This document shows, piece after piece, positions 4,283 through 16,012 of a DNA stretch of 25,993 bases. The notes under the pieces were generated by a model. It had not been told where the DNA came from, did no database searches, and saw nothing but the letters and a program-made list of their open reading frames with translations. Position 1 is the stretch's first letter. Every line of letters starts with the position of its first letter. The translations under genes were made by a program, and so were the position numbers. The DNA comes from a virus. The stretch lies in the UHGV virus genome UHGV-0145247; one strand, written 5' to 3'.

Positions 4283-5497
4283 TTAGAAGTGATGTGGTAT
4301 GATTAAAACCCCATGTTTGTCCAAAGGCGGCACTGTGAAAAATGAATTGTAAAATAAAATACATGACTCCTGATTGTGTAAGTCTATTTGGAAATAACGG
4401 GATACATACCGTTCCAGAATGTTTTGATAATAATCATGGTTTAATTTTTCTTTATTCCTAGCTCGTTCAATTATGTCTTCGTGCAGACTTGAAAATACCT
4501 CAATTAAGTCATCCTTATCCCCATTTAACATGGCATGAAAAGCAGCAGCAGCAAATAACTCATTTGCAGGACCTGCAGACAGCCAGTGACTGCTTTCAAT
4601 AGAATTAATGGACTCCCTCAAACGCCAGAGACCCAAGCGCATTGCCTGATCGTTTAAAAGTTTCAGTAATGGTGGATAAGCATAAATGTCCGTACCAAAC
4701 AGCCTGCGTGGTACACTCAGATCTGCAAAGGTCACATGTTTTACAGAGGCTAGCGCTTCCTGTATTTCATCCTGACCATATTGCATCGTGAGCGCCTTTA
4801 ATAACGTCGATTTTACAGGCAGGGGAGAACCTGCCGCTTTTATGCCGCTGAACGTTCCTCGGGTTTTGCTCACGGGAATAGTGTCCTTCATCATCCTGTT
4901 AATCAACGCAGGGGCAATAATGATGTTATCCGCTGTATTGGCCCCCCCTTTGGAATTCGGATATATGTGACATAACTCCAGCTCCAGCCAGGGTATCAGG
5001 CGTTTAATAACCTGCCCCTGTGAATCAATAACCCTTTGCCCATTTAGAGTATTGTAAGCTTTCTGGTAGTCTGCTTTGCGCTGGTACAACCGGATGAGAT
5101 CAGCAATGTCATCAGGGCTGGTGATACTTCCCAGCCCGAGGGGATTATTCTTTAGCTTGGACTCCACGTTGATCCAGTAAGAATGTTTTACCAGACTGAC
5201 AATGGCATCGTCATCTATGAGCCTTCTATCTTTATTACGATGCCCAATACAACAATACCGTTGATTGCGAGTACCAGACAGGCTAATACCACAGGGCGGG
5301 TACTGACACGTCAGATTCCACCTTTGCGCTCTTTTAGCTGCATTAGAAAGCTTACCCTGATAATGTACAGAACATAAGCGGAATTTACGCTCATCAGGTA
5401 ATTCACCAATTGAGAGCGTACAGTTATTTCTTTTACAAATAGCCATAATAAGACTCTTATCACAGTTAATCATGTTGCATGATAAATAAATAGCCAC
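4283..5497 (-). CDS. HNH nuclease-domain protein with Cys-rich N-terminus (404 aa)
   Basis: Cys pairs in first ~110 aa, then HNH-like motif ELELCHIYPNSKGGANTADNIIIAPALINR; AT-rich gene between AT-rich spacers; GTG start at 5497 without clear SD, alternative ATG at 5473. Confidence 0.6.
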   Translation of the reverse strand: MAIYLSCNMINCDKSLIMAICKRNNCTLSIGELPDERKFRLCSVHYQGKLSNAAKRAQRWNLTCQYPPCGISLSGTRNQRYCCIGHRNKDRRLIDDDAIVSLVKHSYWINVESKLKNNPLGLGSITSPDDIADLIRLYQRKADYQKAYNTLNGQRVIDSQGQVIKRLIPWLELELCHIYPNSKGGANTADNIIIAPALINRMMKDTIPVSKTRGTFSGIKAAGSPLPVKSTLLKALTMQYGQDEIQEALASVKHVTFADLSVPRRLFGTDIYAYPPLLKLLNDQAMRLGLWRLRESINSIESSHWLSAGPANELFAAAAFHAMLNGDKDDLIEVFSSLHEDIIERARNKEKLNHDYYQNILERYVSRYFQIDLHNQESCILFYNSFFTVPPLDKHGVLIIPHHF

Positions 5498-5664: not shown

Positions 5665-5898
5665 TTATGGTTGTTCGGCAATAGTAGTTGATGATGCCAG
5701 ATGACGTTTCAGCAACCACTCATCCAGTTCAGACTCAAGCCAGCCGACAGATTGCATGCCTAGGCGACGTTGTTTAGGGAATGTGGCGTCATATCGTGGT
5801 GACATGGGGTTAATCCAGTCGTAGATGGTAGAACGGGCTACGCCTATCTTGTTGACAACACTAGACATACGCAGGATTTTAATGTGTTGAGTGTTCAT
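5665..5898 (-). CDS. alpA: AlpA-family transcriptional regulator / excisionase-like protein (77 aa)
   Basis: Resembles E. coli AlpA (ATIYDWINPMSPRYDATFPKQRRLG...SVGWLESELDEWL). Confidence 0.8.
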   Translation of the reverse strand: MNTQHIKILRMSSVVNKIGVARSTIYDWINPMSPRYDATFPKQRRLGMQSVGWLESELDEWLLKRHLASSTTIAEQP

Positions 5899-6023
5899 AC
5901 CGATTTGTTCCTTGTTGGCCCTGTATGGATGGGGCTAACTTTACCGAGAGGGCAAAATGGGATCCAGATATGTACCAAAAGTAAAAAAAAACTGTGGAAT
6001 GTGACGTTTTAAGAGAGGTTGGG

Positions 6024-6740
6024 ATGACAGACGATAGTGTTCTGGATGGCATTTTTGATTCAGTAAAGAGCGAAGCTGAGCGTTTTATATCGTGCTACAG
6101 CGGTAGTGATGATGTCAGTAGTTACAATGAACTCCGTGACCGGTGCGAGAGTAAAGCAAAAGAAAAAATTAATAAATTCAAGGAGGAAGGCTGCCACATC
6201 CTGGATGATGATTTTGAATGCATGCTTTACGATGCTAATTTTTCTGCACAATGGAATGGAAAGTTTGGAACGTATCTTGCCATTGCATTCTTCTTTTACC
6301 ACTGGGGGCAGTATTGTTATTCCTCTGGGCACCGGCGTGAAGGATTGCTATTTATGGCAAGAGCAGCTGGTTGTGGTGGAGTCTGGCAGGGGGCTGGGCT
6401 ATACGCTGACCGTGTAGAGACTGCTGAATTGGCGTTAAAGAAAAAGCAAGATCATGGAAAGAAGGGAGGAGAGGCTACTGGCTTGGCTTTAGCACCCGCA
6501 CGGGATGAGTTGAAGCGGTTGCTTAAAATAAACTGCCCGGCAGAAGGATGGAAAACTAAAACTGCAGCAATCGGTGCCGTTGTAGATCAACTTGAGGTTT
6601 TTGTTAAAAAACACAAAATAAATTTGAAAACCGATAATCTTGATAATGCCATATTAACATGGTGTAAGAGATATGATGATTTACGAGACGTATTGGAGAG
6701 TTCTTTAAAAAAGAACATGAAAAATAACCGCGTGGGTTGA
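6024..6740 (+). CDS. Hypothetical protein (238 aa), AT-rich, between alpA and integrase
   Basis: RBS AGAGAGG before ATG at 6024; no recognised motif; opposite strand to flanking genes. Confidence 0.55.
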   Translation: MTDDSVLDGIFDSVKSEAERFISCYSGSDDVSSYNELRDRCESKAKEKINKFKEEGCHILDDDFECMLYDANFSAQWNGKFGTYLAIAFFFYHWGQYCYSSGHRREGLLFMARAAGCGGVWQGAGLYADRVETAELALKKKQDHGKKGGEATGLALAPARDELKRLLKINCPAEGWKTKTAAIGAVVDQLEVFVKKHKINLKTDNLDNAILTWCKRYDDLRDVLESSLKKNMKNNRVG

Positions 6741-6913: not shown

Positions 6914-8155
6914 TCATCCAACGAGCCGCATTCCTTTTATCCCCTCCTCAATGATAGTTCCGCGATCTGCAGCCATCACGAAGTCAGCCCACCATTGCAT
7001 CATAGGTCGCCGCTGTTCCAGATAATCGCTGCGATTGTAAGCTCGTCGTACCTCATTTTTGTCCACATGAGCAAGTGCGGCTTCAATGACATCAGGTGGA
7101 AAACCTTGCTCATTGAGTGCTGTGCTGGCGATAGAACGCAGGCCGTGAGAAACGAGTACGCCTCCTAAGCCAGCACGCTTAAGTGCGGCATTAACTGTTT
7201 GGCTGTTCATTGGCTGGGTTGGTTTGATGCGACTGGGAAAGATAAACTCTCGGCCACCGCTGAGGGACTTCATCACTTCCAGAATTGAGATAGCCTCATC
7301 TGATAGTGGAACCGTATGGTCTCGGTTCATCTTCATTCGAGCTGCTGGAATTTTCCATTCGTTAGCATCAAAATCGATCTCATCCCATCGTGCCTCAGCG
7401 GCTTCGGCAGGGCGGGTAATGGTGAGAAGCTGCCACATGAACAAGCACCGCGTTGACATACTGATACTTGCCGTACGCATAGTCTGCATTAGCTGCGGAA
7501 GTTGATCCGGGCGGATGCTTGGCATGTTTTTCTTTTGCGGTTTCTCAAATGCTTTTCCGATATTTACACTGGGAACTGCATCAATCAGGCCTGTGTTCTG
7601 CGCATAAATCATGACTTCGTTAATACGCTGACAAAGGCGGCGAACAGTCTCTAATGCACCTCTGGCCTGAACCGGCTGAACAGCTTTAACTAGAGTATGA
7701 GCCTTAATCTCAGTGACACTAATATCACCGATTGCTGGGAAAACATCTCTCTCAAGCGAGCGCCAGATATCGTCGGCATAGTCCTCTGTTACGCTGGCTT
7801 TCTTCACATTCCACCAACGCTCGGCAACTAACAGGAAAGTGTTGGTTTTAGCCTCTTGAGAATTTCTTACCTGTTCTTTCTGATGTTCCTGAGGATCAAT
7901 GTCTTTCGCCAACAAAACTCGAGATTCAGCTCTGAGTTTACGCGCATCAGAAAGGGAGACAGCAGGGTAGGCACCGAAGCTCTGTTTGGTTCGCTGTTTT
8001 GTCAGCGGTCGATAGTAACGGAACTGCCAGAGCTTACTACCACTGGACTTGATTAATAGAGTAAGCCCGTCACCATCATACAGCTGGTAATCGGCATCTT
8101 TAGGTTTGGCGGCTTTGATTTCCGTATCGGTTAACGGCTTGGTTTTTCTTGCCAT
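6914..8155 (-). CDS. intA: Tyrosine recombinase, P4-type integrase (IntA-like, 413 aa)
   Basis: N-terminus MARKTKPLTDTEIKAAKPKDADYQLYDGDGL typical of P4-family integrases; RBS GGAG 8 nt upstream of ATG 8155. Confidence 0.9.
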   Translation of the reverse strand: MARKTKPLTDTEIKAAKPKDADYQLYDGDGLTLLIKSSGSKLWQFRYYRPLTKQRTKQSFGAYPAVSLSDARKLRAESRVLLAKDIDPQEHQKEQVRNSQEAKTNTFLLVAERWWNVKKASVTEDYADDIWRSLERDVFPAIGDISVTEIKAHTLVKAVQPVQARGALETVRRLCQRINEVMIYAQNTGLIDAVPSVNIGKAFEKPQKKNMPSIRPDQLPQLMQTMRTASISMSTRCLFMWQLLTITRPAEAAEARWDEIDFDANEWKIPAARMKMNRDHTVPLSDEAISILEVMKSLSGGREFIFPSRIKPTQPMNSQTVNAALKRAGLGGVLVSHGLRSIASTALNEQGFPPDVIEAALAHVDKNEVRRAYNRSDYLEQRRPMMQWWADFVMAADRGTIIEEGIKGMRLVG

Positions 8156-8165
8156 GGGGAATCTC

Positions 8166-8200
8166 CATGCGTTTAGGCCCAACGAAAACAATAGAGCTTT
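8166..8200. other. Perfect 13-bp stem hairpin (GGCCCAACGAAAA / TTTTCGTTGGGCC, 9-nt loop) just upstream of integrase start
   Basis: Inverted repeat read directly from sequence. Confidence 0.5.
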
Positions 8201-8276
8201 TCGTTGGGCCTATCAATGGGCCTAAAAGGTTCGGATTTAATTAGTTCTCTTCGGACTTCGCGGGACAAATTCAAGG

Positions 8277-8310
8277 CACAAAAAAGCCCGCAGGGCTTGC
8301 GCCGTGCGGG
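8277..8310 (-). terminator. Rho-independent terminator on minus strand, downstream of the ssrA 3' end
   Basis: GCCCGCA / TGCGGGC stem (8285-8291, 8304-8310) followed on minus strand by T6. Confidence 0.5.
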
Positions 8311-8358
8311 CTCTTAGGACTTCATCGGATGACTCTGGTAATCACCGATGGAGAATTT

Positions 8359-8394
8359 TGGTGGAGCTGGCGGGAGTTGAACCCGCGCCCGAAA
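8359..8394 (-). other. ssrA: 3'-terminal fragment of tmRNA gene ssrA (att core shared by the two elements)
   Basis: Minus strand reads ...CGGACGCGGGTTCAACTCCCGCCAGCTCCACCA, matching the 3' end of E. coli tmRNA with one mismatch; similarity stops after ~36 nt. Confidence 0.8.
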
Positions 8395-8451
8395 ATTTAT
8401 AACCTCATGATAAACAGTGATAAAAAAATTTAGCGTTTTGCTGCGGATCCT

Positions 8452-9642
8452 TTACGGCTCCTTTGAGGTTCCACCGCTGACCAGCTTGGGTCGTTTTTCA
8501 GTGTTGCCGTCATACTCCTTCAGATAGCGTCCATAATGCCTGAACAACATTTCTGGCCCTTTATGTCCCATCTGTGATGCCAGCCAGAACAGGTTAGCGC
8601 CTCGACTTATATGTCGGGTCGCGAACGTATGCCTGGTCTGGTATGGATTGCGGTACCTGATCCCAGCTTTACGTAAAGTTGGCACCCAGGCTTTCTTTCT
8701 TATCGCATCGGCACCCGCCCATGGTTTTTCTGTCTTAGGATCCTCAAAGATCGTTGCATCTTTCATAAAGGTGAAAGGCTTCTGAGAAGTCAGGGCATAC
8801 AAGGCTTCTTCGGTCAACTCAACTTTACGTGTTCCAGCTTTAGTTTTCGTGCCCTTAATTACCCCCACTACGCTGGCATTTTGCACATGCGCTGTTTTGC
8901 CGATAAAGTCGATATCGCGCCAACGGAGGGCGCAGAGTTCAGAACTACGTAGCCCGGTTTCAATTGCAAAGCGGAATATGTTTTCCCACTGCTTATTACC
9001 CGCAGCATGCAAAAGCGCTTCAACCTCGGCCGGTGAAAGCGGATCAACAATATAATCACTTTCATCCTCGGTTTTACTGCTCTGGTAGCGCGAGGCTGTC
9101 ACCAGTGAAACAGGGTTAATCTGCAATACACCATCAGTCACAGCTTCATCCAGTGCTGAGCGTAGGAATGAAAGTTGGTTCCTAATCGTCTTTAATGTCG
9201 TTTTCTGACTCTGGATCCATGTTTTTAAAGCAGCAGGTGTTAATTCGCTGGCAGGAAAAACGTGAAGTGATGCCAGAGCATTTAAACATTTCTTATATCC
9301 GCCGATTGTTGAAGGAGATAATTTTCTCGTTTCACAAATTACAAGATATTCATCGAGATAATTTTTTACCGTTTTTCCTGTTGAAGCATTACCAAATATT
9401 TTAAGTCGTGCCGAACGGGGAAAGTGTTCACCATAATTGAATGTACCACGCTCAATTTTATTGTGAATTTCGCCGAGTGTTCGCTCGGCGTATTTAAGGT
9501 TTTTGCTATTAACTTCAAGGTTTGATAAAGGTTCCCGGCATTTCACCCCCTTATAGGTAAAGGTAATATTGATAGTTTCCCCAGTACTATGTTTCCTGAT
9601 CGTTACGCCGCGCGGGAGTTTAGGCGATTTTGTCGAGCCCAT
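8452..9642 (-). CDS. int: Phage integrase, tyrosine recombinase (396 aa)
   Basis: C-terminal catalytic region (RHTFATRHISRGANLFWLASQMGHKGPEMLFRHYGRY); next to att core. Confidence 0.9.
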   Translation of the reverse strand: MGSTKSPKLPRGVTIRKHSTGETINITFTYKGVKCREPLSNLEVNSKNLKYAERTLGEIHNKIERGTFNYGEHFPRSARLKIFGNASTGKTVKNYLDEYLVICETRKLSPSTIGGYKKCLNALASLHVFPASELTPAALKTWIQSQKTTLKTIRNQLSFLRSALDEAVTDGVLQINPVSLVTASRYQSSKTEDESDYIVDPLSPAEVEALLHAAGNKQWENIFRFAIETGLRSSELCALRWRDIDFIGKTAHVQNASVVGVIKGTKTKAGTRKVELTEEALYALTSQKPFTFMKDATIFEDPKTEKPWAGADAIRKKAWVPTLRKAGIRYRNPYQTRHTFATRHISRGANLFWLASQMGHKGPEMLFRHYGRYLKEYDGNTEKRPKLVSGGTSKEP

Positions 9643-9821
9643 TTTGCAACCTCACTAAGATCTATCCATCTTTCCTTAACGCCTTCGACCTTTAGCACCT
9701 GTACCCCTTCACGCCATACGCCGCGTTGGATGCGCTTATTTATGGCATCAGGGGTTTCGCCTGTCTCTTTGCAATAAGTTGAGATGGGAACACAATCGAG
9801 GCTCAGCATAGATTTCTCCAT
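9603..9821 (-). CDS. xis: Excisionase-like protein (72 aa)
   Basis: Small basic ORF overlapping the int start, position typical for xis. Confidence 0.55.
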   Translation of the reverse strand: MEKSMLSLDCVPISTYCKETGETPDAINKRIQRGVWREGVQVLKVEGVKERWIDLSEVAKWARQNRLNSRAA

Positions 9822-9889
9822 TACCCCGGCTGCACCCGGGGGAAATTATTAAATAACTGCGCTTTTTGGCGCTGGTGGTGCGACCGCGC

Positions 9890-10060
9890 TCATAGCGGTG
9901 AATCATCCCCCAGCTTCGCCTTTAAATCGCCAGTGACAAACCAGGCTGGAATTTCTCCGGCATTATTAGAGGATCGCCCCTGCGGTGAGGTGAATGACCC
10001 ACGCACGGGAATTAGTTTGATGAGGCTGACACATCGGCCAATTTCTTCAATGGTGCGCAT
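9890..10060 (-). CDS. Small ORF (56 aa), translationally coupled to upstream gene
   Basis: ATG overlaps the stop of the 347-aa gene (TGATG), RBS GGAGG upstream; below ORF-track cutoff. Confidence 0.3.
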   Translation of the reverse strand: MRTIEEIGRCVSLIKLIPVRGSFTSPQGRSSNNAGEIPAWFVTGDLKAKLGDDSPL

Positions 10061-11103
10061 CACTTCACCTCCTGCGGGGCGGCTGCGAAGTGATTAATGG
10101 CCTTATCCCAGATTTCTTTGATGGTGGTCCAGTCAATCGGCATGGTGCTCGTCCAGGTTCCCTCGCCGCTGCAGTCGTCGCACCCTTCACCAAAACACTC
10201 ATGGCATGTCAGCGTATATTCAAGATTGAATTCCCCGAGAAGCGCTGCTTTTGCACCGTTCTCAGCGGTTAGCCTCATCGGCACCATCACGTACCCCTCT
10301 GGAATTACCGTGGAGTTGCTAGCATTTGGATGCAGAGCGCGAATCCCTTCGGCTAATTCTTCCAGGGTGGATGAATATCCGCGCTGGGCATCATTGCCGA
10401 ACTCGAACGCTCCGGTATCAGGATTAGACCATCCATGCTCGCTGTCGTATGCCTCACGCTGCTTATCTATCCATTTGGCGGCGGCTTCAATGCCATCGCG
10501 ATAGAAAGTGACTACTGGCGCTGGCTGCTCTTTGATGTGCAAGCGAGGTTCACCGTCTTTCGGCTCAGGCCATTCGCGCTGTTTGTTCACTGCCAGCTTT
10601 TCGATCATCGCCTGGGTAATCTGTTCGTCGGTGATACCGGCACGACGCTGGGCATCCCACATCAGGAATTGCATATCAGCCCACTCCGACAGGTCATCTG
10701 GTTCCGCTGCGGCCTCCATAGCCTCTTTTGCCAGATGCTTCAGTGGTCCAACAGGGCCGACATTACCGAATGTTGCCTGTGACCACTCTGAGTGCTCGCG
10801 GCGTACCTGCTCTCGGTCCTTTGCTGGTTGCGCTGGCGGATAATTTGCCAGCATCCAACTAATGACGTAGTCGTCCTTGAACCGCTCAACCGGAAATCCT
10901 TCATTCCAGTCACGGAAGTGATAGATAACTTTTGCCAGCTCAGGTTGAAGCGCCACCGGCTCGTTGTCCATTGCGGCCAGCGCCATGCGAGACAGCTCCT
11001 CAGCCTCTTCAGCTGGCAGCATTACGTTGCTTCCGGCACCGTAGGTTTCACGCCATGATTTAATTTTTTCCAGGCGCTCTCTGGTTATGGTCGATTTGGT
11101 CAT
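10060..11103 (-). CDS. Phage early protein with DUF550-like domain (Ead/Ea22-like), 347 aa
   Basis: Motif HLAKEAMEAAAEPDDLSEWADMQFLMWDAQRRAGITDEQI resembles the DUF550 family seen in lambdoid early regions (from memory). Confidence 0.5.
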   Translation of the reverse strand: MTKSTITRERLEKIKSWRETYGAGSNVMLPAEEAEELSRMALAAMDNEPVALQPELAKVIYHFRDWNEGFPVERFKDDYVISWMLANYPPAQPAKDREQVRREHSEWSQATFGNVGPVGPLKHLAKEAMEAAAEPDDLSEWADMQFLMWDAQRRAGITDEQITQAMIEKLAVNKQREWPEPKDGEPRLHIKEQPAPVVTFYRDGIEAAAKWIDKQREAYDSEHGWSNPDTGAFEFGNDAQRGYSSTLEELAEGIRALHPNASNSTVIPEGYVMVPMRLTAENGAKAALLGEFNLEYTLTCHECFGEGCDDCSGEGTWTSTMPIDWTTIKEIWDKAINHFAAAPQEVK

Positions 11104-11393
11104 GGTTGGCTCCAGTTATCCTCGATAGCCACGCCCAAGCGGTGTAGCCAGTCTGCAAGTTTGAGCATCGATTCGCGGTCGCTAAGTCCTTCCGGAAAGT
11201 CTTTCAGTTCGATAGTCGGTATAAAGCGACCGAAGCTATCGCGCTCTACCGTTAGAAATTGCTCCAGAACAGTCTGCTGAATGCGGCTGTTATGCCGCAC
11301 CAGGTAAACATATTTGGAGTCTTTGGCTTTAGGCTCGTAGAGATACTCGGTCAGTATCATCTGGCTTCTGGTGCGATCGGTTCCTCTCCACAT
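11100..11393 (-). CDS. Hypothetical phage protein (~97 aa), abuts IS110 insertion
   Basis: ORF with ATGA overlap to downstream gene; ATG at 11393 preferred over GTG at 11396. Confidence 0.45.
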   Translation of the reverse strand: MWRGTDRTRSQMILTEYLYEPKAKDSKYVYLVRHNSRIQQTVLEQFLTVERDSFGRFIPTIELKDFPEGLSDRESMLKLADWLHRLGVAIEDNWSQP

Positions 11394-11396
11394 CAC

Positions 11397-12550
<1,154 letters not shown>

Positions 12551-12561
12551 TGAAGTGGTGT

Positions 12562-13065
12562 TCAAGACAGTTGCTCCACCTTGATGCCAGCGGCGGTCAG
12601 CGCCGCTAGAAATTCGTCAACTTCATCACGCATGTATATTCCAAGCTTCTCTCCGCCGACTGTGATATGCCCCGGCCGCATCGGTTTCACGGTGACGGTG
12701 CGGGACTCCAGCTCGGCGATGCGCTCTTTTGCCACCAATAATTCAGCAGCAATTTCACGCCAACTTTCATAACTGGCCTCAAGCTTGTCCCAATCAGGGT
12801 TGAAGTTGGCAAGCTCAGACAACTGGCCTTTCAGAAACGCATTACTCTTCTGCGCCTTCTCCAGCGCCTCTGCCATCTCAGCGCCAGCCGCTTTCCATGC
12901 CTCCCACATTCCCTCAAGCTCTGAGTCGTCATCGTCAACCTTATAGCCTTCCCCATCGCGCCAGTGCGACCAGCCAAAACGCGGCGGATTGCCGTTATGC
13001 TGGGTGCGCTCCCACCACGCTTCGAATTTCTCTCTCTGCGCCAGTTCGGTGATATCAGTTGTCAT
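12562..13065 (-). CDS. Hypothetical phage protein (167 aa)
   Basis: Acidic, coiled-coil-like ORF; start overlaps methyltransferase stop (ATGA). Confidence 0.55.
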   Translation of the reverse strand: MTTDITELAQREKFEAWWERTQHNGNPPRFGWSHWRDGEGYKVDDDDSELEGMWEAWKAAGAEMAEALEKAQKSNAFLKGQLSELANFNPDWDKLEASYESWREIAAELLVAKERIAELESRTVTVKPMRPGHITVGGEKLGIYMRDEVDEFLAALTAAGIKVEQLS

Positions 13066-13790
13066 GCTGCACGCTCCCGTTTAATCACCATGCGCTCGAA
13101 TGCGGTGCAAAATATTTCCGGATCTTTTTCTACGCCTATAAACCGGCGCCCTGATTGCTGACACGCAACGCCAGCAGTCCCGCTACCCATAGTGAAGTCC
13201 AGTACTGTATCGCCATGATTGCTGTAGGTTTCAATCAGGTATTTCACAAGCGCCAAAGGCTTTTGCGTTGAATGAAGAGCTTGTTTTTGCTTATCACTAG
13301 AGAATTTCTGCACATCTCGCGGATAGCGGCTTGTTGAATCGTAAGTGACTTTTTTCAACGCCTCGCCATAGACATCAGTATTCGGCGTGCCTCTTGTTGC
13401 AGTTTTTCTGGCGTGCCCATGCGTCATCTGTGGGTTGTATGTCGGCTGCTTTCTGTAAAAAACCTCAATATTTTCATGTGCACGAAGAGGTTGTTTTTTC
13501 GCATTCAGGAAACCTGTAGCGTGTGGCTTCTCCCAAATCCACTCCGACCGCCAGTCCCGCAGATTGCTGTTAATCAGCACGCTGGTGAACGGCTGAGCGG
13601 AAAACAGCACAATAGCGGCGCTGGGCTTAGCGATGCGGTAGAGTTGCTCCCACATCAGAGCCAAGTCGAGAACAGAATCCCAGCGGCACTGAGTGGTACC
13701 GTATGGGATATCAGCACATACCAGGTCAACGGTACCGCTGGCGATTTTCGGGAATACGTCGAAGCAATCTGCGTTGTGAAGGTAGATCAT
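13062..13790 (-). CDS. DNA methyltransferase, N6-adenine/N4-cytosine type (242 aa)
   Basis: Motif IV-like DIPYGT near N-terminus and AdoMet-binding DFTMGSGTAGVA near C-terminus. Confidence 0.8.
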   Translation of the reverse strand: MIYLHNADCFDVFPKIASGTVDLVCADIPYGTTQCRWDSVLDLALMWEQLYRIAKPSAAIVLFSAQPFTSVLINSNLRDWRSEWIWEKPHATGFLNAKKQPLRAHENIEVFYRKQPTYNPQMTHGHARKTATRGTPNTDVYGEALKKVTYDSTSRYPRDVQKFSSDKQKQALHSTQKPLALVKYLIETYSNHGDTVLDFTMGSGTAGVACQQSGRRFIGVEKDPEIFCTAFERMVIKRERAA

Positions 13791-14380
13791 TTGTCGGCCC
13801 CCTCGCGCAGCTGCTGGGCGTAGTAGTCACGCAGCGCACAGGCCGCAACAGAAATAAGCGTGTCAAAATCACAAACAACCGTATCGCCGTTGTGCTGTTC
13901 TGAATTTGCGATCACCTTAAGAGCGCTCACCAGCGGGGCTGCAGCATCAGCCTTAATCCCGGCTACGATGCGATCGGTGGCGGGGGTTGCCACCGAGTCA
14001 ACCAACCGGTAATTGCATGTTTGATAGGTGTGCTGGCTATCGGAGGTATGCAGCCCTTGAGCATCGAAGCCTTGAGCCTGTTGAATCACGACACCCCATG
14101 ACACGCGCTGAACATCTTCGCTCCAGCCGTCGTCTGCGTCCTCACGGTAAGCGTCAATCTCTTCCTGCGCTGTATCAATAGCGTTCTGCTTGTCTTTGAA
14201 ATAATCAAAACCGTATTCAGGCGAGTATGCGAAGTAAGTTACGCCAGCCTTTAGCCCCACATTCTCCGCAGCCACATCCAGATATGCTTTCGCCAGCGCC
14301 ATAACCTTTGTCTCTTTGATCGACAGCTCGCCCGCAGACTCAAGCGACTGAATGAGCTCGTTTACTGTTTCGATGTTCAT
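13787..14380 (-). CDS. Hypothetical phage protein (197 aa)
   Basis: Start taken at internal ATG 14380 (MNIETV), which overlaps the stop of the upstream small ORF. Confidence 0.5.
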   Translation of the reverse strand: MNIETVNELIQSLESAGELSIKETKVMALAKAYLDVAAENVGLKAGVTYFAYSPEYGFDYFKDKQNAIDTAQEEIDAYREDADDGWSEDVQRVSWGVVIQQAQGFDAQGLHTSDSQHTYQTCNYRLVDSVATPATDRIVAGIKADAAAPLVSALKVIANSEQHNGDTVVCDFDTLISVAACALRDYYAQQLREGADK

Positions 14381-14511
14381 GCCGTCACCCATTCGATCAT
14401 CATGCATACGCCCCAGGTCACAGCGACTACTGCAACCCACCCGATAACACTGACCAGTGCAGCAAACCAGAGAAGGGCGCGCCGGCTGTAATTTTCAGGT
14501 TCAAAGTTCAT
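14377..14511 (-). CDS. Small hydrophobic protein (44 aa), likely membrane peptide
   Basis: MNFEPENYSRRALLWFAALVSVIGWVAVVAVTWGVCMMIEWVTA; ATGA overlaps at both ends; below ORF-track cutoff. Confidence 0.35.
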   Translation of the reverse strand: MNFEPENYSRRALLWFAALVSVIGWVAVVAVTWGVCMMIEWVTA

Positions 14512-15293
14512 TGCGCCTCCCCAATTACCCAGCGCAGAGCCTCGGCATATTCGCCGCTGGCATCTTCAAGGGCTTTAGTGATTTCCTTACGCGATTTGAT
14601 GCGCGGCTTTGCCTCACCGAGAACCTGACGCTGCCGACGGGATTTTTCATGGCCTTTGGTACCAGCTGTCGCCAGCTCGATTTCTGCCACTTTTGCCCGC
14701 TGCTCTTCAGGTGGGAGCGCGCCAAGCTGACGCGCCTGGGTAACGGTAACTGTGCCAGACTCGACCGCTTCACGAACAGCCTGGGTAGCATCGAGTAGTG
14801 ACAGCGTTGCACGGACAGTCTGAACGCTACAGCCAAACAACACCGCAAGGTCGTCCTCGTCATGACCACGATCCAGCGCGTCTGACATTTTCTTAGCTCG
14901 ACCTAATGGCGTATCAGGTCGGCGGATTTCGTTTTCGCTGACCATATATTTGGCCATTTGGTTTGCAGACCCACGCTTAACGACTCCAGGAACAAGCAGC
15001 GGTGTTTTGCCTTCTTTCAGCAGGAGCTTATTGGCTTCCAGCGTATGTTTAACGCGCTGACGACCGACAACCACACAGGTGAGCCCCTTTTCAGGGTCTT
15101 TCCAGACAATAATCGGCTCAAGAACACCCAGCTCCTTGATATTCAGCACCATCCCTTCATCGATCGGCAGATTGACTCGCTCATCGTAAAGCGGGTGGGC
15201 CTTGTCAGTGACAATATGCAGATTTTCCGGCTCGAACATCAGAACGTTTGTCTTGCCGCTGGCGCCATAAGCATCGATCGAGTTTTTAGCCAT
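14508..15293 (-). CDS. ParB-like nuclease-domain protein (261 aa)
   Basis: ParB N-terminal-domain-like segment LGVLEPIIVWKDPEKGLTCVVVGRQRVKHTLEA; RBS GAGGAA. Confidence 0.65.
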   Translation of the reverse strand: MAKNSIDAYGASGKTNVLMFEPENLHIVTDKAHPLYDERVNLPIDEGMVLNIKELGVLEPIIVWKDPEKGLTCVVVGRQRVKHTLEANKLLLKEGKTPLLVPGVVKRGSANQMAKYMVSENEIRRPDTPLGRAKKMSDALDRGHDEDDLAVLFGCSVQTVRATLSLLDATQAVREAVESGTVTVTQARQLGALPPEEQRAKVAEIELATAGTKGHEKSRRQRQVLGEAKPRIKSRKEITKALEDASGEYAEALRWVIGEAQ

Positions 15294-15486
15294 TTCTGTT
15301 TTCCTCGCTCAGGTTCGCTATCATCGCGGCCATAGCGGTGTTCTGGTCCATTGCCTCTGTAAGGGCGACAAAGGTCACATCCAGCCTTGACGCTATGTCT
15401 TGCATTAATTGTGCTGCTGCTGGTGGTAGGTCAGGTGCTGCAGCGTATGCTGCAGCAACCAATTCTTTCACTTTCACGTGTGCCAT
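15286..15486 (-). CDS. Hypothetical small protein (66 aa)
   Basis: Ala-rich ORF with RBS, overlaps start of ParB-like gene. Confidence 0.4.
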   Translation of the reverse strand: MAHVKVKELVAAAYAAAPDLPPAAAQLMQDIASRLDVTFVALTEAMDQNTAMAAMIANLSEENRNG

Positions 15487-15517
15487 TAGCGCCGCTCCAT
15501 CAGTTGGTTAAAGCGGT

Positions 15518-16012
15518 TCATGAACAGGCCATAAGATTGACCAGGGCGGCGGGATTAATCACAAATTGGTCGGTGGGAATAATACCGTCGAGCATCGGCC
15601 AGTGGGTGCCGTCGTCGATCTCAAAGTCGCGACGTTCGCTGGCGAGCATCACAAGGTCGGCATACTTTACGGTCGGGTGCTGCTCAGCTGGCAGGCAGAA
15701 TTTTTGACGGATAGCAGCATCAACCCGATCCTCAATGGCGCGGTAGTCCGGGAGCAGGCGCTTAAGCGGTGCTGGAATATCCTGCAAATAAGCCTCTGCG
15801 GCATCGTGCAGTAGTGCTTCAAGAGCAAACTCCTGTGGTACCAGGTGGCTGGTTAACACGCTGTGCTGACCGACGCTGTAGAACTCCGGAAGATGGCCAG
15901 CAAAGCGGCAAATATTCGAGAGCGCGTTAGCGATATCTTCGATCTCAATGGCATCCAACTGGATATCGAGATAGTTAAAGTGCTTGCCTGTGAACGTTTG
16001 AATAAAGCTCAT
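15518..16012 (-). CDS. HD-domain phosphohydrolase (YfdR-like), 164 aa
   Basis: HD motif context ALEALLHDAAEAY; start at internal ATG 16012 with RBS GGAGAA. Confidence 0.7.
   Translation of the reverse strand: MSFIQTFTGKHFNYLDIQLDAIEIEDIANALSNICRFAGHLPEFYSVGQHSVLTSHLVPQEFALEALLHDAAEAYLQDIPAPLKRLLPDYRAIEDRVDAAIRQKFCLPAEQHPTVKYADLVMLASERRDFEIDDGTHWPMLDGIIPTDQFVINPAALVNLMACS

Follow-up and report, generated by a model that had tools for sequence, protein, structure and literature searches.

Integration of mobile elements at the 3′ end of ssrA, the gene for transfer-messenger RNA (tmRNA), regenerates the gene and leaves a displaced fragment of it behind, and arrays of such elements are thus separated by copies of the attachment (att) core. 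Tandem arrays of elements with different integrase subfamilies, split by displaced gene fragments, have reportedly been found at this gene (Williams 2003, J Bacteriol 185:1059, cited in PMC10107115). The ssrA arrays have been catalogued by Islander and TIGER (PMC4383910). In Escherichia coli K-12, the excision of the CP4-57 prophage leaves a one-base deletion in ssrA, abolishes trans-translation and shifts ribosome rescue to ArfA (PMC10107115). The DNA analyzed here was a 25,993-nt stretch of the UHGV virus genome UHGV-0145247 (the whole stretch is called the window below). It carries a 36-nt piece of the ssrA 3′ end at 8359–8394 on the minus strand, flanked by the integrase genes of a lambdoid prophage and a CP4-57-like island. 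This piece is very probably a hybrid att junction, composed of the integrase-proximal end (P-O-B′) of the prophage and the ssrA-proximal end of the island. The arrangement is already known in kind, and it adds one more combination, that of a DUF3596-type phage integrase with a P4-type island integrase in a Klebsiella-type host. The array shows ssrA gathering elements from unrelated integrase families, and the current understanding of the site is unchanged.

The island was closest to CP4-57 of K-12. The two shared an integrase (92–99% identical), the trailer, the terminator, the TAGGCCCA repeats (the K-12 inverted repeat has one mismatch) and the core at the ssrA 3′ end, as well as the gene types AlpA, DUF932, YfjT, antirestriction, RadC, DUF987 and CbeA. 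It was different from CP4-57 in having DUF3944 and WYL genes between alpA and the DUF932 gene, in that its related loci extend into Hachiman-like defence genes, and in that a whole prophage separates it from the working ssrA. On the prophage side, the lambdoid Escherichia phage LLS, Citrobacter phage phiNP and Klebsiella phage Kp4866-6, which have DUF3596-type integrases, possessed a homologous integrase/excisionase module with 77–90% DNA identity, whereas their P arm sequences differed and their early regions were mosaic. In addition, the LLS record contains an annotated tmRNA pseudogene and an attP in which the same core is joined to a homologous P′ arm, but LLS has a further gene separating its integrase from attP. 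The tandem order of phage integrase, core and P4-type integrase is also present in Kp4866-6, whose unverified Klebsiella pneumoniae record probably represents a predicted prophage.

Identity and extent of the ssrA fragment

The features around the junction were as follows.
8452–9642, minus strand: prophage integrase, 396 aa, a tyrosine recombinase with an N-terminal DUF3596 (Arm-DNA-bind_2) domain (Pfam)
8395–8451, minus strand: phage P arm, 57 nt, from the integrase stop codon to the tmRNA-like segment, identical in L006–L015
8382–8394, minus strand: phage-borne tmRNA mimic TTTCGGGCGCGGG, with G and not A at 8388 (alignment to full ssrA)
8359–8381, minus strand: shared 23-nt core TTCAACTCCCGCCAGCTCCACCA, from the tmRNA T-loop to CCA, exact after 61 integrase-relative loci
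8277–8358, minus strand: ssrA trailer hairpin (8320–8353) and intrinsic terminator (about 8280–8315), from folding and a terminator scan
6914–8155, minus strand: island integrase, 413 aa, P4-type and IntA-like (Pfam Arm-DNA-bind_3, Phage_int_M and Phage_integrase)

Read from 8394 to 8359, the minus strand is TTTCGGGCGCGGGTTCAACTCCCGCCAGCTCCACCA, which equals the last 36 nt of enterobacterial tmRNA, CCA included, at 35 of the 36 positions. The full ssrA of island-only relatives terminates in TTTCGGACGCGGGTTCAACTCCCGCCAGCTCCACCA, and its alignment to the window (35/36) stopped at 8394, as did the similarity to the E. coli intA/ssrA region by megablast against 4,226 E. coli genomes. The sole mismatch was at 8388, where the window reads GGGCG and the host GGACG. 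The 29-mer CGCGGGTTCAACTCCCGCCAGCTCCACCA, which ends in CCA, occurred once in the window (8359–8387, minus strand) and had no match across 100 shuffles. A second, degenerate copy of the core was not found within the window with up to two substitutions or indels allowed.

No complete tmRNA gene was found in the 26-kb window by ARAGORN or by Rfam at the gathering threshold, and in particular no intact ssrA adjoins the fragment on the same strand. The full tRNA-like and mRNA-like domains with a tag frame, which mark a functional tmRNA gene, were not present at 8359–8394. A permissive Rfam search gave a sub-threshold tmRNA match ending at 8359, with 37.2 bits against a gathering score of 47. The initial annotation, made from the sequence of the window, had described about 36 nt of the tmRNA 3′ end with CCA at this place and an end of the ssrA similarity past the core, and both were reproduced. 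Its view that the fragment is an att duplicate and not the intact gene was likewise upheld, both by the result for tmRNA genes and by the independent variation of the phage and island contexts described below. Consequently for annotation, the tmRNA-like stretch at 8359–8394 should not be called as a gene. The boundary between the elements is also fixed: the prophage runs from 8395, and the island begins at or within the core ending at 8359.

A further similarity was noted next to the fragment. The Rfam tmRNA model places GGAGCCGUAAAGGAUCC (8445–8461, in the integrase stop region) on the tmRNA 5′ end, and this segment could form six of seven acceptor-stem pairs with the core, giving a miniature tRNA-like fold of attP. 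The fold of the integrase stop stretch GGAGCCGTAAAGGATCC with the core was considered and rejected as probably a coincidence, because the P arm of LLS, with another gene between integrase and attP, shows nothing comparable.

Position of the strand exchange

The comparison covered about 250 related loci, in which sequence identities, junction boundaries and contexts were read directly. The counts for the core refer to the 61 loci where the 23-nt core was found, since the others mostly end too soon past the integrase gene. In these 61, the exact TTCAACTCCCGCCAGCTCCACCA follows the integrase gene and is preceded by 37 different P arms. The 13–15 nt ahead of the 23-nt block were tmRNA-like yet polymorphic among the P arms. 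The host base was present in 17 of the 37 P arms at position -5, in 32 at -3 and in 33 at -7, and the resemblance to tmRNA had gone by position -16. This polymorphism extends to the base just before TTCAAC. On the other side, every right-hand variant, whether island or chromosome, departs directly past CCA or CCAA. The G at 8388 of the window corresponds to position -7 and is one of the phage P-arm variants, so the exchange took place 3′ of 8388.

The same stretch is used by CP4-57. The K-12 annotation puts the start of CP4-57 within the final 15 nt of ssrA. Furthermore, the remnant at the far end of CP4-57 (attR) reads TTCAGACTCCGCCAGC-CCACCA with one T deleted and spans the same stretch as the core; the missing T is the known CP4-57 excision scar that inactivates tmRNA (PMC10107115, Table 1, citing Williams 2003). 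Judged from these sequences, both integrases must exchange strands inside the 23-nt core at 8359–8381. Since both would act in the same 23 bp, the core is indeed shared, as had been proposed. The proposed length of 36 nt was not supported: the shared part is 23 nt, and the other 13 nt are phage-borne mimicry.

Independent occurrence of the prophage and the island

Both integrases had the expected domains, in agreement with the assignment of a phage integrase to one flank and a P4-type island integrase to the other. The product of 8452–9642, at one end of the prophage, matched Phage_integrase with 63.5 bits (cut-off 27.1) and also Arm-DNA-bind_2. The P4-subfamily integrase stands right after the ssrA core and is transcribed away from it, which is the layout of K-12.

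The exact 396-aa integrase protein was indexed in 155 blocks of the assembly collection, and its contexts were read in ten loci. All ten were identical from the integrase stop through the 57-nt spacer and the tmRNA-like segment, and what came next included at least five different right-hand neighbours.
L006 and L012: after the core, island-free chromosome with type VI secretion system and fimbrial genes
L008; L009, L011 and L013; L010: after the core, 413-aa IntA islands with three different cargos
L007: after the core, a P4-like satellite with a 397-aa integrase and Psu, Delta and primase genes
L014: after the core, an island with a 412-aa integrase
L015: after the core, an island remnant

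Among them, L010 was 99.94% identical to the window over 19.6 kb. The island also occurred without the phage. The same island with an identical DUF932 protein was found in 813 collection blocks, usually directly behind smpB and an intact ssrA, and in phage-free genomes (L096–L103) the window's sequence between CCA and the start codon of intA recurred unchanged. The phage arm with its integrase and the island thus each occur independently of the other, which bears out the earlier proposal of two mobile elements in tandem at ssrA.

The remnant in L015 (11170–11500) showed a scar of its own. Its core is short of one T (CCAGCCCACCA), which is the same scar as in CP4-57 attR. The phage integrase and P arm are unchanged, the trailer and degenerate arm repeats are retained, and the island integrase and cargo are gone.

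Origin of the junction

In the proposed mechanism, both tyrosine integrases would recombine within the last 23 nt of ssrA, from the T-loop to CCA, and the phage attP would contribute about 36 nt that resemble tmRNA. Once the phage has integrated, the working ssrA would keep its own 5′ part, end in the core and continue into the other arm of the phage, which would supply a terminator about 125 nt downstream of the regenerated gene. The displaced core copy would remain beside the phage integrase, joined to whatever lay behind ssrA. Here, the DNA behind the displaced core would be the island, with intA and with an ssrA trailer and terminator of its own.

Most likely, the island came first and the phage then entered the regenerated ssrA. 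The phage most likely entered island-bearing strains, because its integrase protein and P arm are identical beside several islands, while the islands with a 413-aa integrase diverge from one another by about 10% in DNA. In the reverse order, the phage would have lysogenised an island-free strain and the island would then have entered the displaced core beside the phage integrase. Island-free lysogens with the same integrase and core do exist (L006, L012 and L017), and the displaced copy retains the full 23-nt core as a possible target. This order is nevertheless unlikely. The identity of the phage integrase and P arm at five or more neighbours, set against the divergence of the islands, fits a recent spread of the phage into island carriers; the island-only arrangement is far commoner (813 collection blocks against 155); and a P4-type integrase may need ssrA sequence 5′ of the core, which is absent from the fragment. 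It is extremely improbable that the fragment is the stump of an ssrA wrecked by deletion or rearrangement instead of site-specific integration: the single window would be compatible with loss of the 5′ part of the gene, but the junction to phage DNA lies at the same base in every lysogen examined and recurs in the attP of the 99% relative and of LLS, the base at 8388 is a phage variant, and tmRNA is near-universal, with related lysogens keeping a full copy at the other prophage end.

Several points weigh against this reading of the junction. Both insertion orders yield the same final sequence. The far ends of the prophage and the island lie outside the window and all fetched loci, and their other core copies were placed from relatives. 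Moreover, the prophage with its IS110-family insertion may be defective. Each element should still be able to excise singly, because each would be bracketed by core copies, and the two might conceivably leave together through the outermost cores.

The attP and the far end of the prophage

An attP-type junction, consisting of integrase, core and P′, was found in L016/L106, where the integrase was 99% identical to that of the window. The core is followed there by ATCATGATTGGACAGTGATAGG..., and the homology to the window stops at 8358. Phage LLS has a homologous integrase-core-P′ arrangement, in a record that annotates a "tmRNA pseudogene" and attP, and its integrase region was about 77% identical in DNA to the window. 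In both cases attP includes a duplicate of the target gene's 3′ portion, so that integration would restore the gene.

The P′ arm (ATCATGATTGGAC...) was located behind complete tmRNA genes in IMG/VR contigs (L104, L109, L111, L118 and L120–L122). In Klebsiella chromosomes (L226–L245), smpB, complete ssrA and P′ are adjacent. On the IMG/VR contig 2884398328_000007 (44.7 kb), a full tmRNA gene with P′ (L118) and an integrase relative (L050) occupy opposite ends. Similarly, on contigs 3300011889_000036 and 3300011630_000065, the ssrA 3′ end with P′ lies at the end opposite the integrase. The P′ arm has a bidirectional terminator 123–150 nt past CCA, which would serve the regenerated ssrA. The window holds one core copy only, and in relatives the full tmRNA gene and P′ stand at the opposite prophage end. 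The far end of the prophage in the window is expected, from these contigs, about 26 kb past the right edge.

The exact junction 42-mer had no match in IMG/VR or in the GTDB representative genomes. A DUF4236 protein adjoining P′ (variants P0002, P0005 and P0007) was found in many loci with smpB, ssrA and P′, and none of these DUF4236 loci came from records with the identical integrase. The named homologues of the protein beside this other arm of the family were mostly from Klebsiella michiganensis, K. oxytoca and relatives. The contig of L017 was not among the matches listed for the broader P′ pattern. The E. coli genome H41, with a 76% related integrase, was considered as a source for the far end and rejected as uninformative; its integrase is not at ssrA but in the interior of a rearranged prophage.

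In two further groups of loci (L105, L108, L113, L115, L119 and L124; L112, L117, L123 and L125–L128), P′ is preceded by the arms of other elements and not by ssrA, and some of these arms carry tmRNA fragments of about 45 nt. Because the arms of other elements precede P′ in so many loci, arrays of two or more elements in varied orders appear to be common at the ssrA site.

Trailer and terminator

The 89-nt trailer had a folding energy of -38 kcal/mol (z = -5.5). The trailer and terminator of the window were the same as in most island-only loci, and they had two single-nucleotide polymorphisms against the island-free lysogens, from which they diverged just past the T-run. Other P4-type islands have trailers and terminators that share this design yet differ clearly from those of the window. 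The K-12 annotation likewise implies that the trailer and terminator belong to the island. From its position and its island haplotype, the terminator at about 8280–8315 is probably island-borne rather than strictly native. The initial annotation had placed a native-looking terminator at 8277–8310. The position was right, with a stem and T-run at about 8280–8315, and "native-looking" was a fair description, but with an island haplotype the terminator is probably not truly native.

Over the trailer and terminator (8280–8368), Rfam gave a weak partial match to the Salmonella small RNA IsrM, with 32 bits against a gathering score of 376. The IsrM model may include sequence from an ssrA-adjacent island.

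Repeats upstream of intA

The following repeats lie between the terminator and the island integrase gene.
8174–8226, minus strand: three copies of TAGGCCCA, direct at 8226–8217 and 8212–8198 and inverted at 8188–8174 (repeat search)

Copies two and three together make up a perfect 15-bp inverted repeat (8174–8188/8198–8212) with a 9-nt spacer. A hairpin had been predicted directly upstream of the island integrase; it does exist there, but it has 15 bp at these positions and not 13 bp at 8166–8200. A promoter scan indicated a sigma-70-like promoter, with the -35 element at 8216–8211 between copies one and two and the -10 element at 8193–8188 in the spacer of the palindrome.

Elsewhere among P4-type ssrA islands, the same pattern of two direct repeats and one inverted repeat recurs with the motifs GGCACC, GGTACACG, GCACCA, GGTACC and GGTATAC. 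The motif followed the arm-binding domain of the integrase. The 413-aa integrase was 98.9% identical to K-12 IntA over residues 1–95, the arm domain, and 92.1% over the remainder, and K-12 has the same motif as the window. The integrase of L008 has a different motif and an arm domain that is 73.7% identical, and the rest of the protein is 90.9% identical. Because the motif covaries with the arm-binding domain and the layout is conserved despite the change of motif, the N-terminal domain of IntA most likely binds the TAGGCCCA repeats as arm-type sites. Lying over the intA promoter, the repeats would have roles in both recombination and autoregulation. In satellite phage P4, comparable integrase-binding repeats overlap the int promoter in attP. 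A testable point is that the repeats in front of intA covary with the integrase N-terminal domain, as arm-type sites would.

As an alternative, the 15-bp inverted repeat might be an RNA hairpin in the intA leader, acting as an attenuator or in AlpA-dependent antitermination, and not a DNA site. It folds stably as RNA (-27 kcal/mol, z = -4.7), lies 18 nt upstream of the intA start codon, and its inverted symmetry is retained in other islands despite the changed sequence. Even so, no U-run follows the inverted repeat, the third, direct copy of the motif falls outside the hairpin, and the only promoter-like site has its -10 element in the hairpin loop, so that the left arm would not be transcribed. 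Together with the covariation of the motif with the arm-binding domain, these features make a role in the leader RNA quite doubtful.

Excision of the island and tmRNA

For the island read as lying behind a later prophage, the excision scar known from K-12 could have a different outcome. The prophage between the working ssrA and the island might uncouple island excision from tmRNA inactivation and turn it into a two-step, phage-gated switch, although this is a rather speculative suggestion with a low probability. If true, the excision of the island would scar only the dead fragment at 8359–8394, unlike in K-12, and the scar would reach the live ssrA only via a later phage excision with a crossover 5′ of that base. 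This reading depends on a damaged far-end core of the island in the window. It offers a testable point in that tmRNA could be protected against the excision scar by a prophage inserted upstream of an island like CP4-57.

Other features of the prophage

Two further features were located on the prophage side.
9603–9821, minus strand: probable excisionase, 72 aa, overlapping the integrase start, at a homologous position in phiNP and LLS
11404–12573, plus strand: IS110-family insertion, 1,170 bp, not part of the att structure (Pfam DEDD_Tnp_IS110 and Transposase_20)

The counterpart of 9603–9821 is annotated as xis in phage phiNP and as a putative excisionase in phage LLS; the 72-aa product itself had no Pfam match. 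Besides this excisionase candidate, the prophage encodes a dATP/dGTP pyrophosphohydrolase, a ParB-like protein, a cI-like S24 repressor, a Cro-type protein, a replication protein and a Dam methylase. The prophage was lambdoid, and its closest relatives in the phage collection were Klebsiella phages. No phage record covered 80% of the window from 8395 to 16000. The IS110-family transposase is encoded in the early region by the open reading frame at 11564–12550 (plus strand), and L007, L009 and L015 are without the insertion at exactly the 11404/12573 breakpoints.

Other features of the island and the K-12 far end

The remaining island features were the following.
5665–5898, minus strand: AlpA-family regulator of the island (Pfam Phage_AlpA, E = 1e-19), in the gene order of CP4-57
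55–876: DUF932 protein of the island (Pfam)

In CP4-57, AlpA activates intA and excision. In the window, DUF3944, WYL and DUF932 proteins come after alpA (Pfam), and in the near-identical loci L010 and L096, YfjT, antirestriction, RadC, DUF987 and CbeA/CbtA modules follow further along the island. The island therefore has an AlpA regulator and CP4-57-like accessory modules. At the far end, islands of the CP4-57/P4 type bear a second core copy, often damaged by loss of one T; the island here continues leftward beyond position 1 of the window and past the 10-kb flank of L096–L103. None of 5,426 complete E. coli genomes had the island DNA at high identity, and the sole match was the DUF932 gene with 78%.

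Past CbeA/CbtA, L096–L103 (13241–20822) encode a 988-aa DEAD/ResIII helicase and a pair of HamA/Cap4-nuclease and helicase genes (Hachiman-like). With these genes, the island exceeds 18 kb and acts as a defence island. Two open reading frames of the window, at 4283–5497 (404 aa, minus strand) and 5994–6740 (248 aa, plus strand), had no Pfam match and flank alpA. Relatives of the former are called as 404- or 387-aa genes, and those of the latter as a 238-aa gene.

Finally, K-12 (NC_000913.3; L250, 23473–23640) has a 14-nt ssrA remnant, psaA, at the far end of CP4-57. Behind psaA, the sequence reads ATCATGATTGGACGGTG...CAGGAAGTTAGAAGTCTCAGC...GACCAGACGGTGAGGAGAC, followed by a terminator. Because this sequence is homologous to the P′ arm of the LLS/L016 family, K-12 seems to keep the left-end stump of an LLS/L016-type phage behind CP4-57, which would represent a former array of the opposite order.

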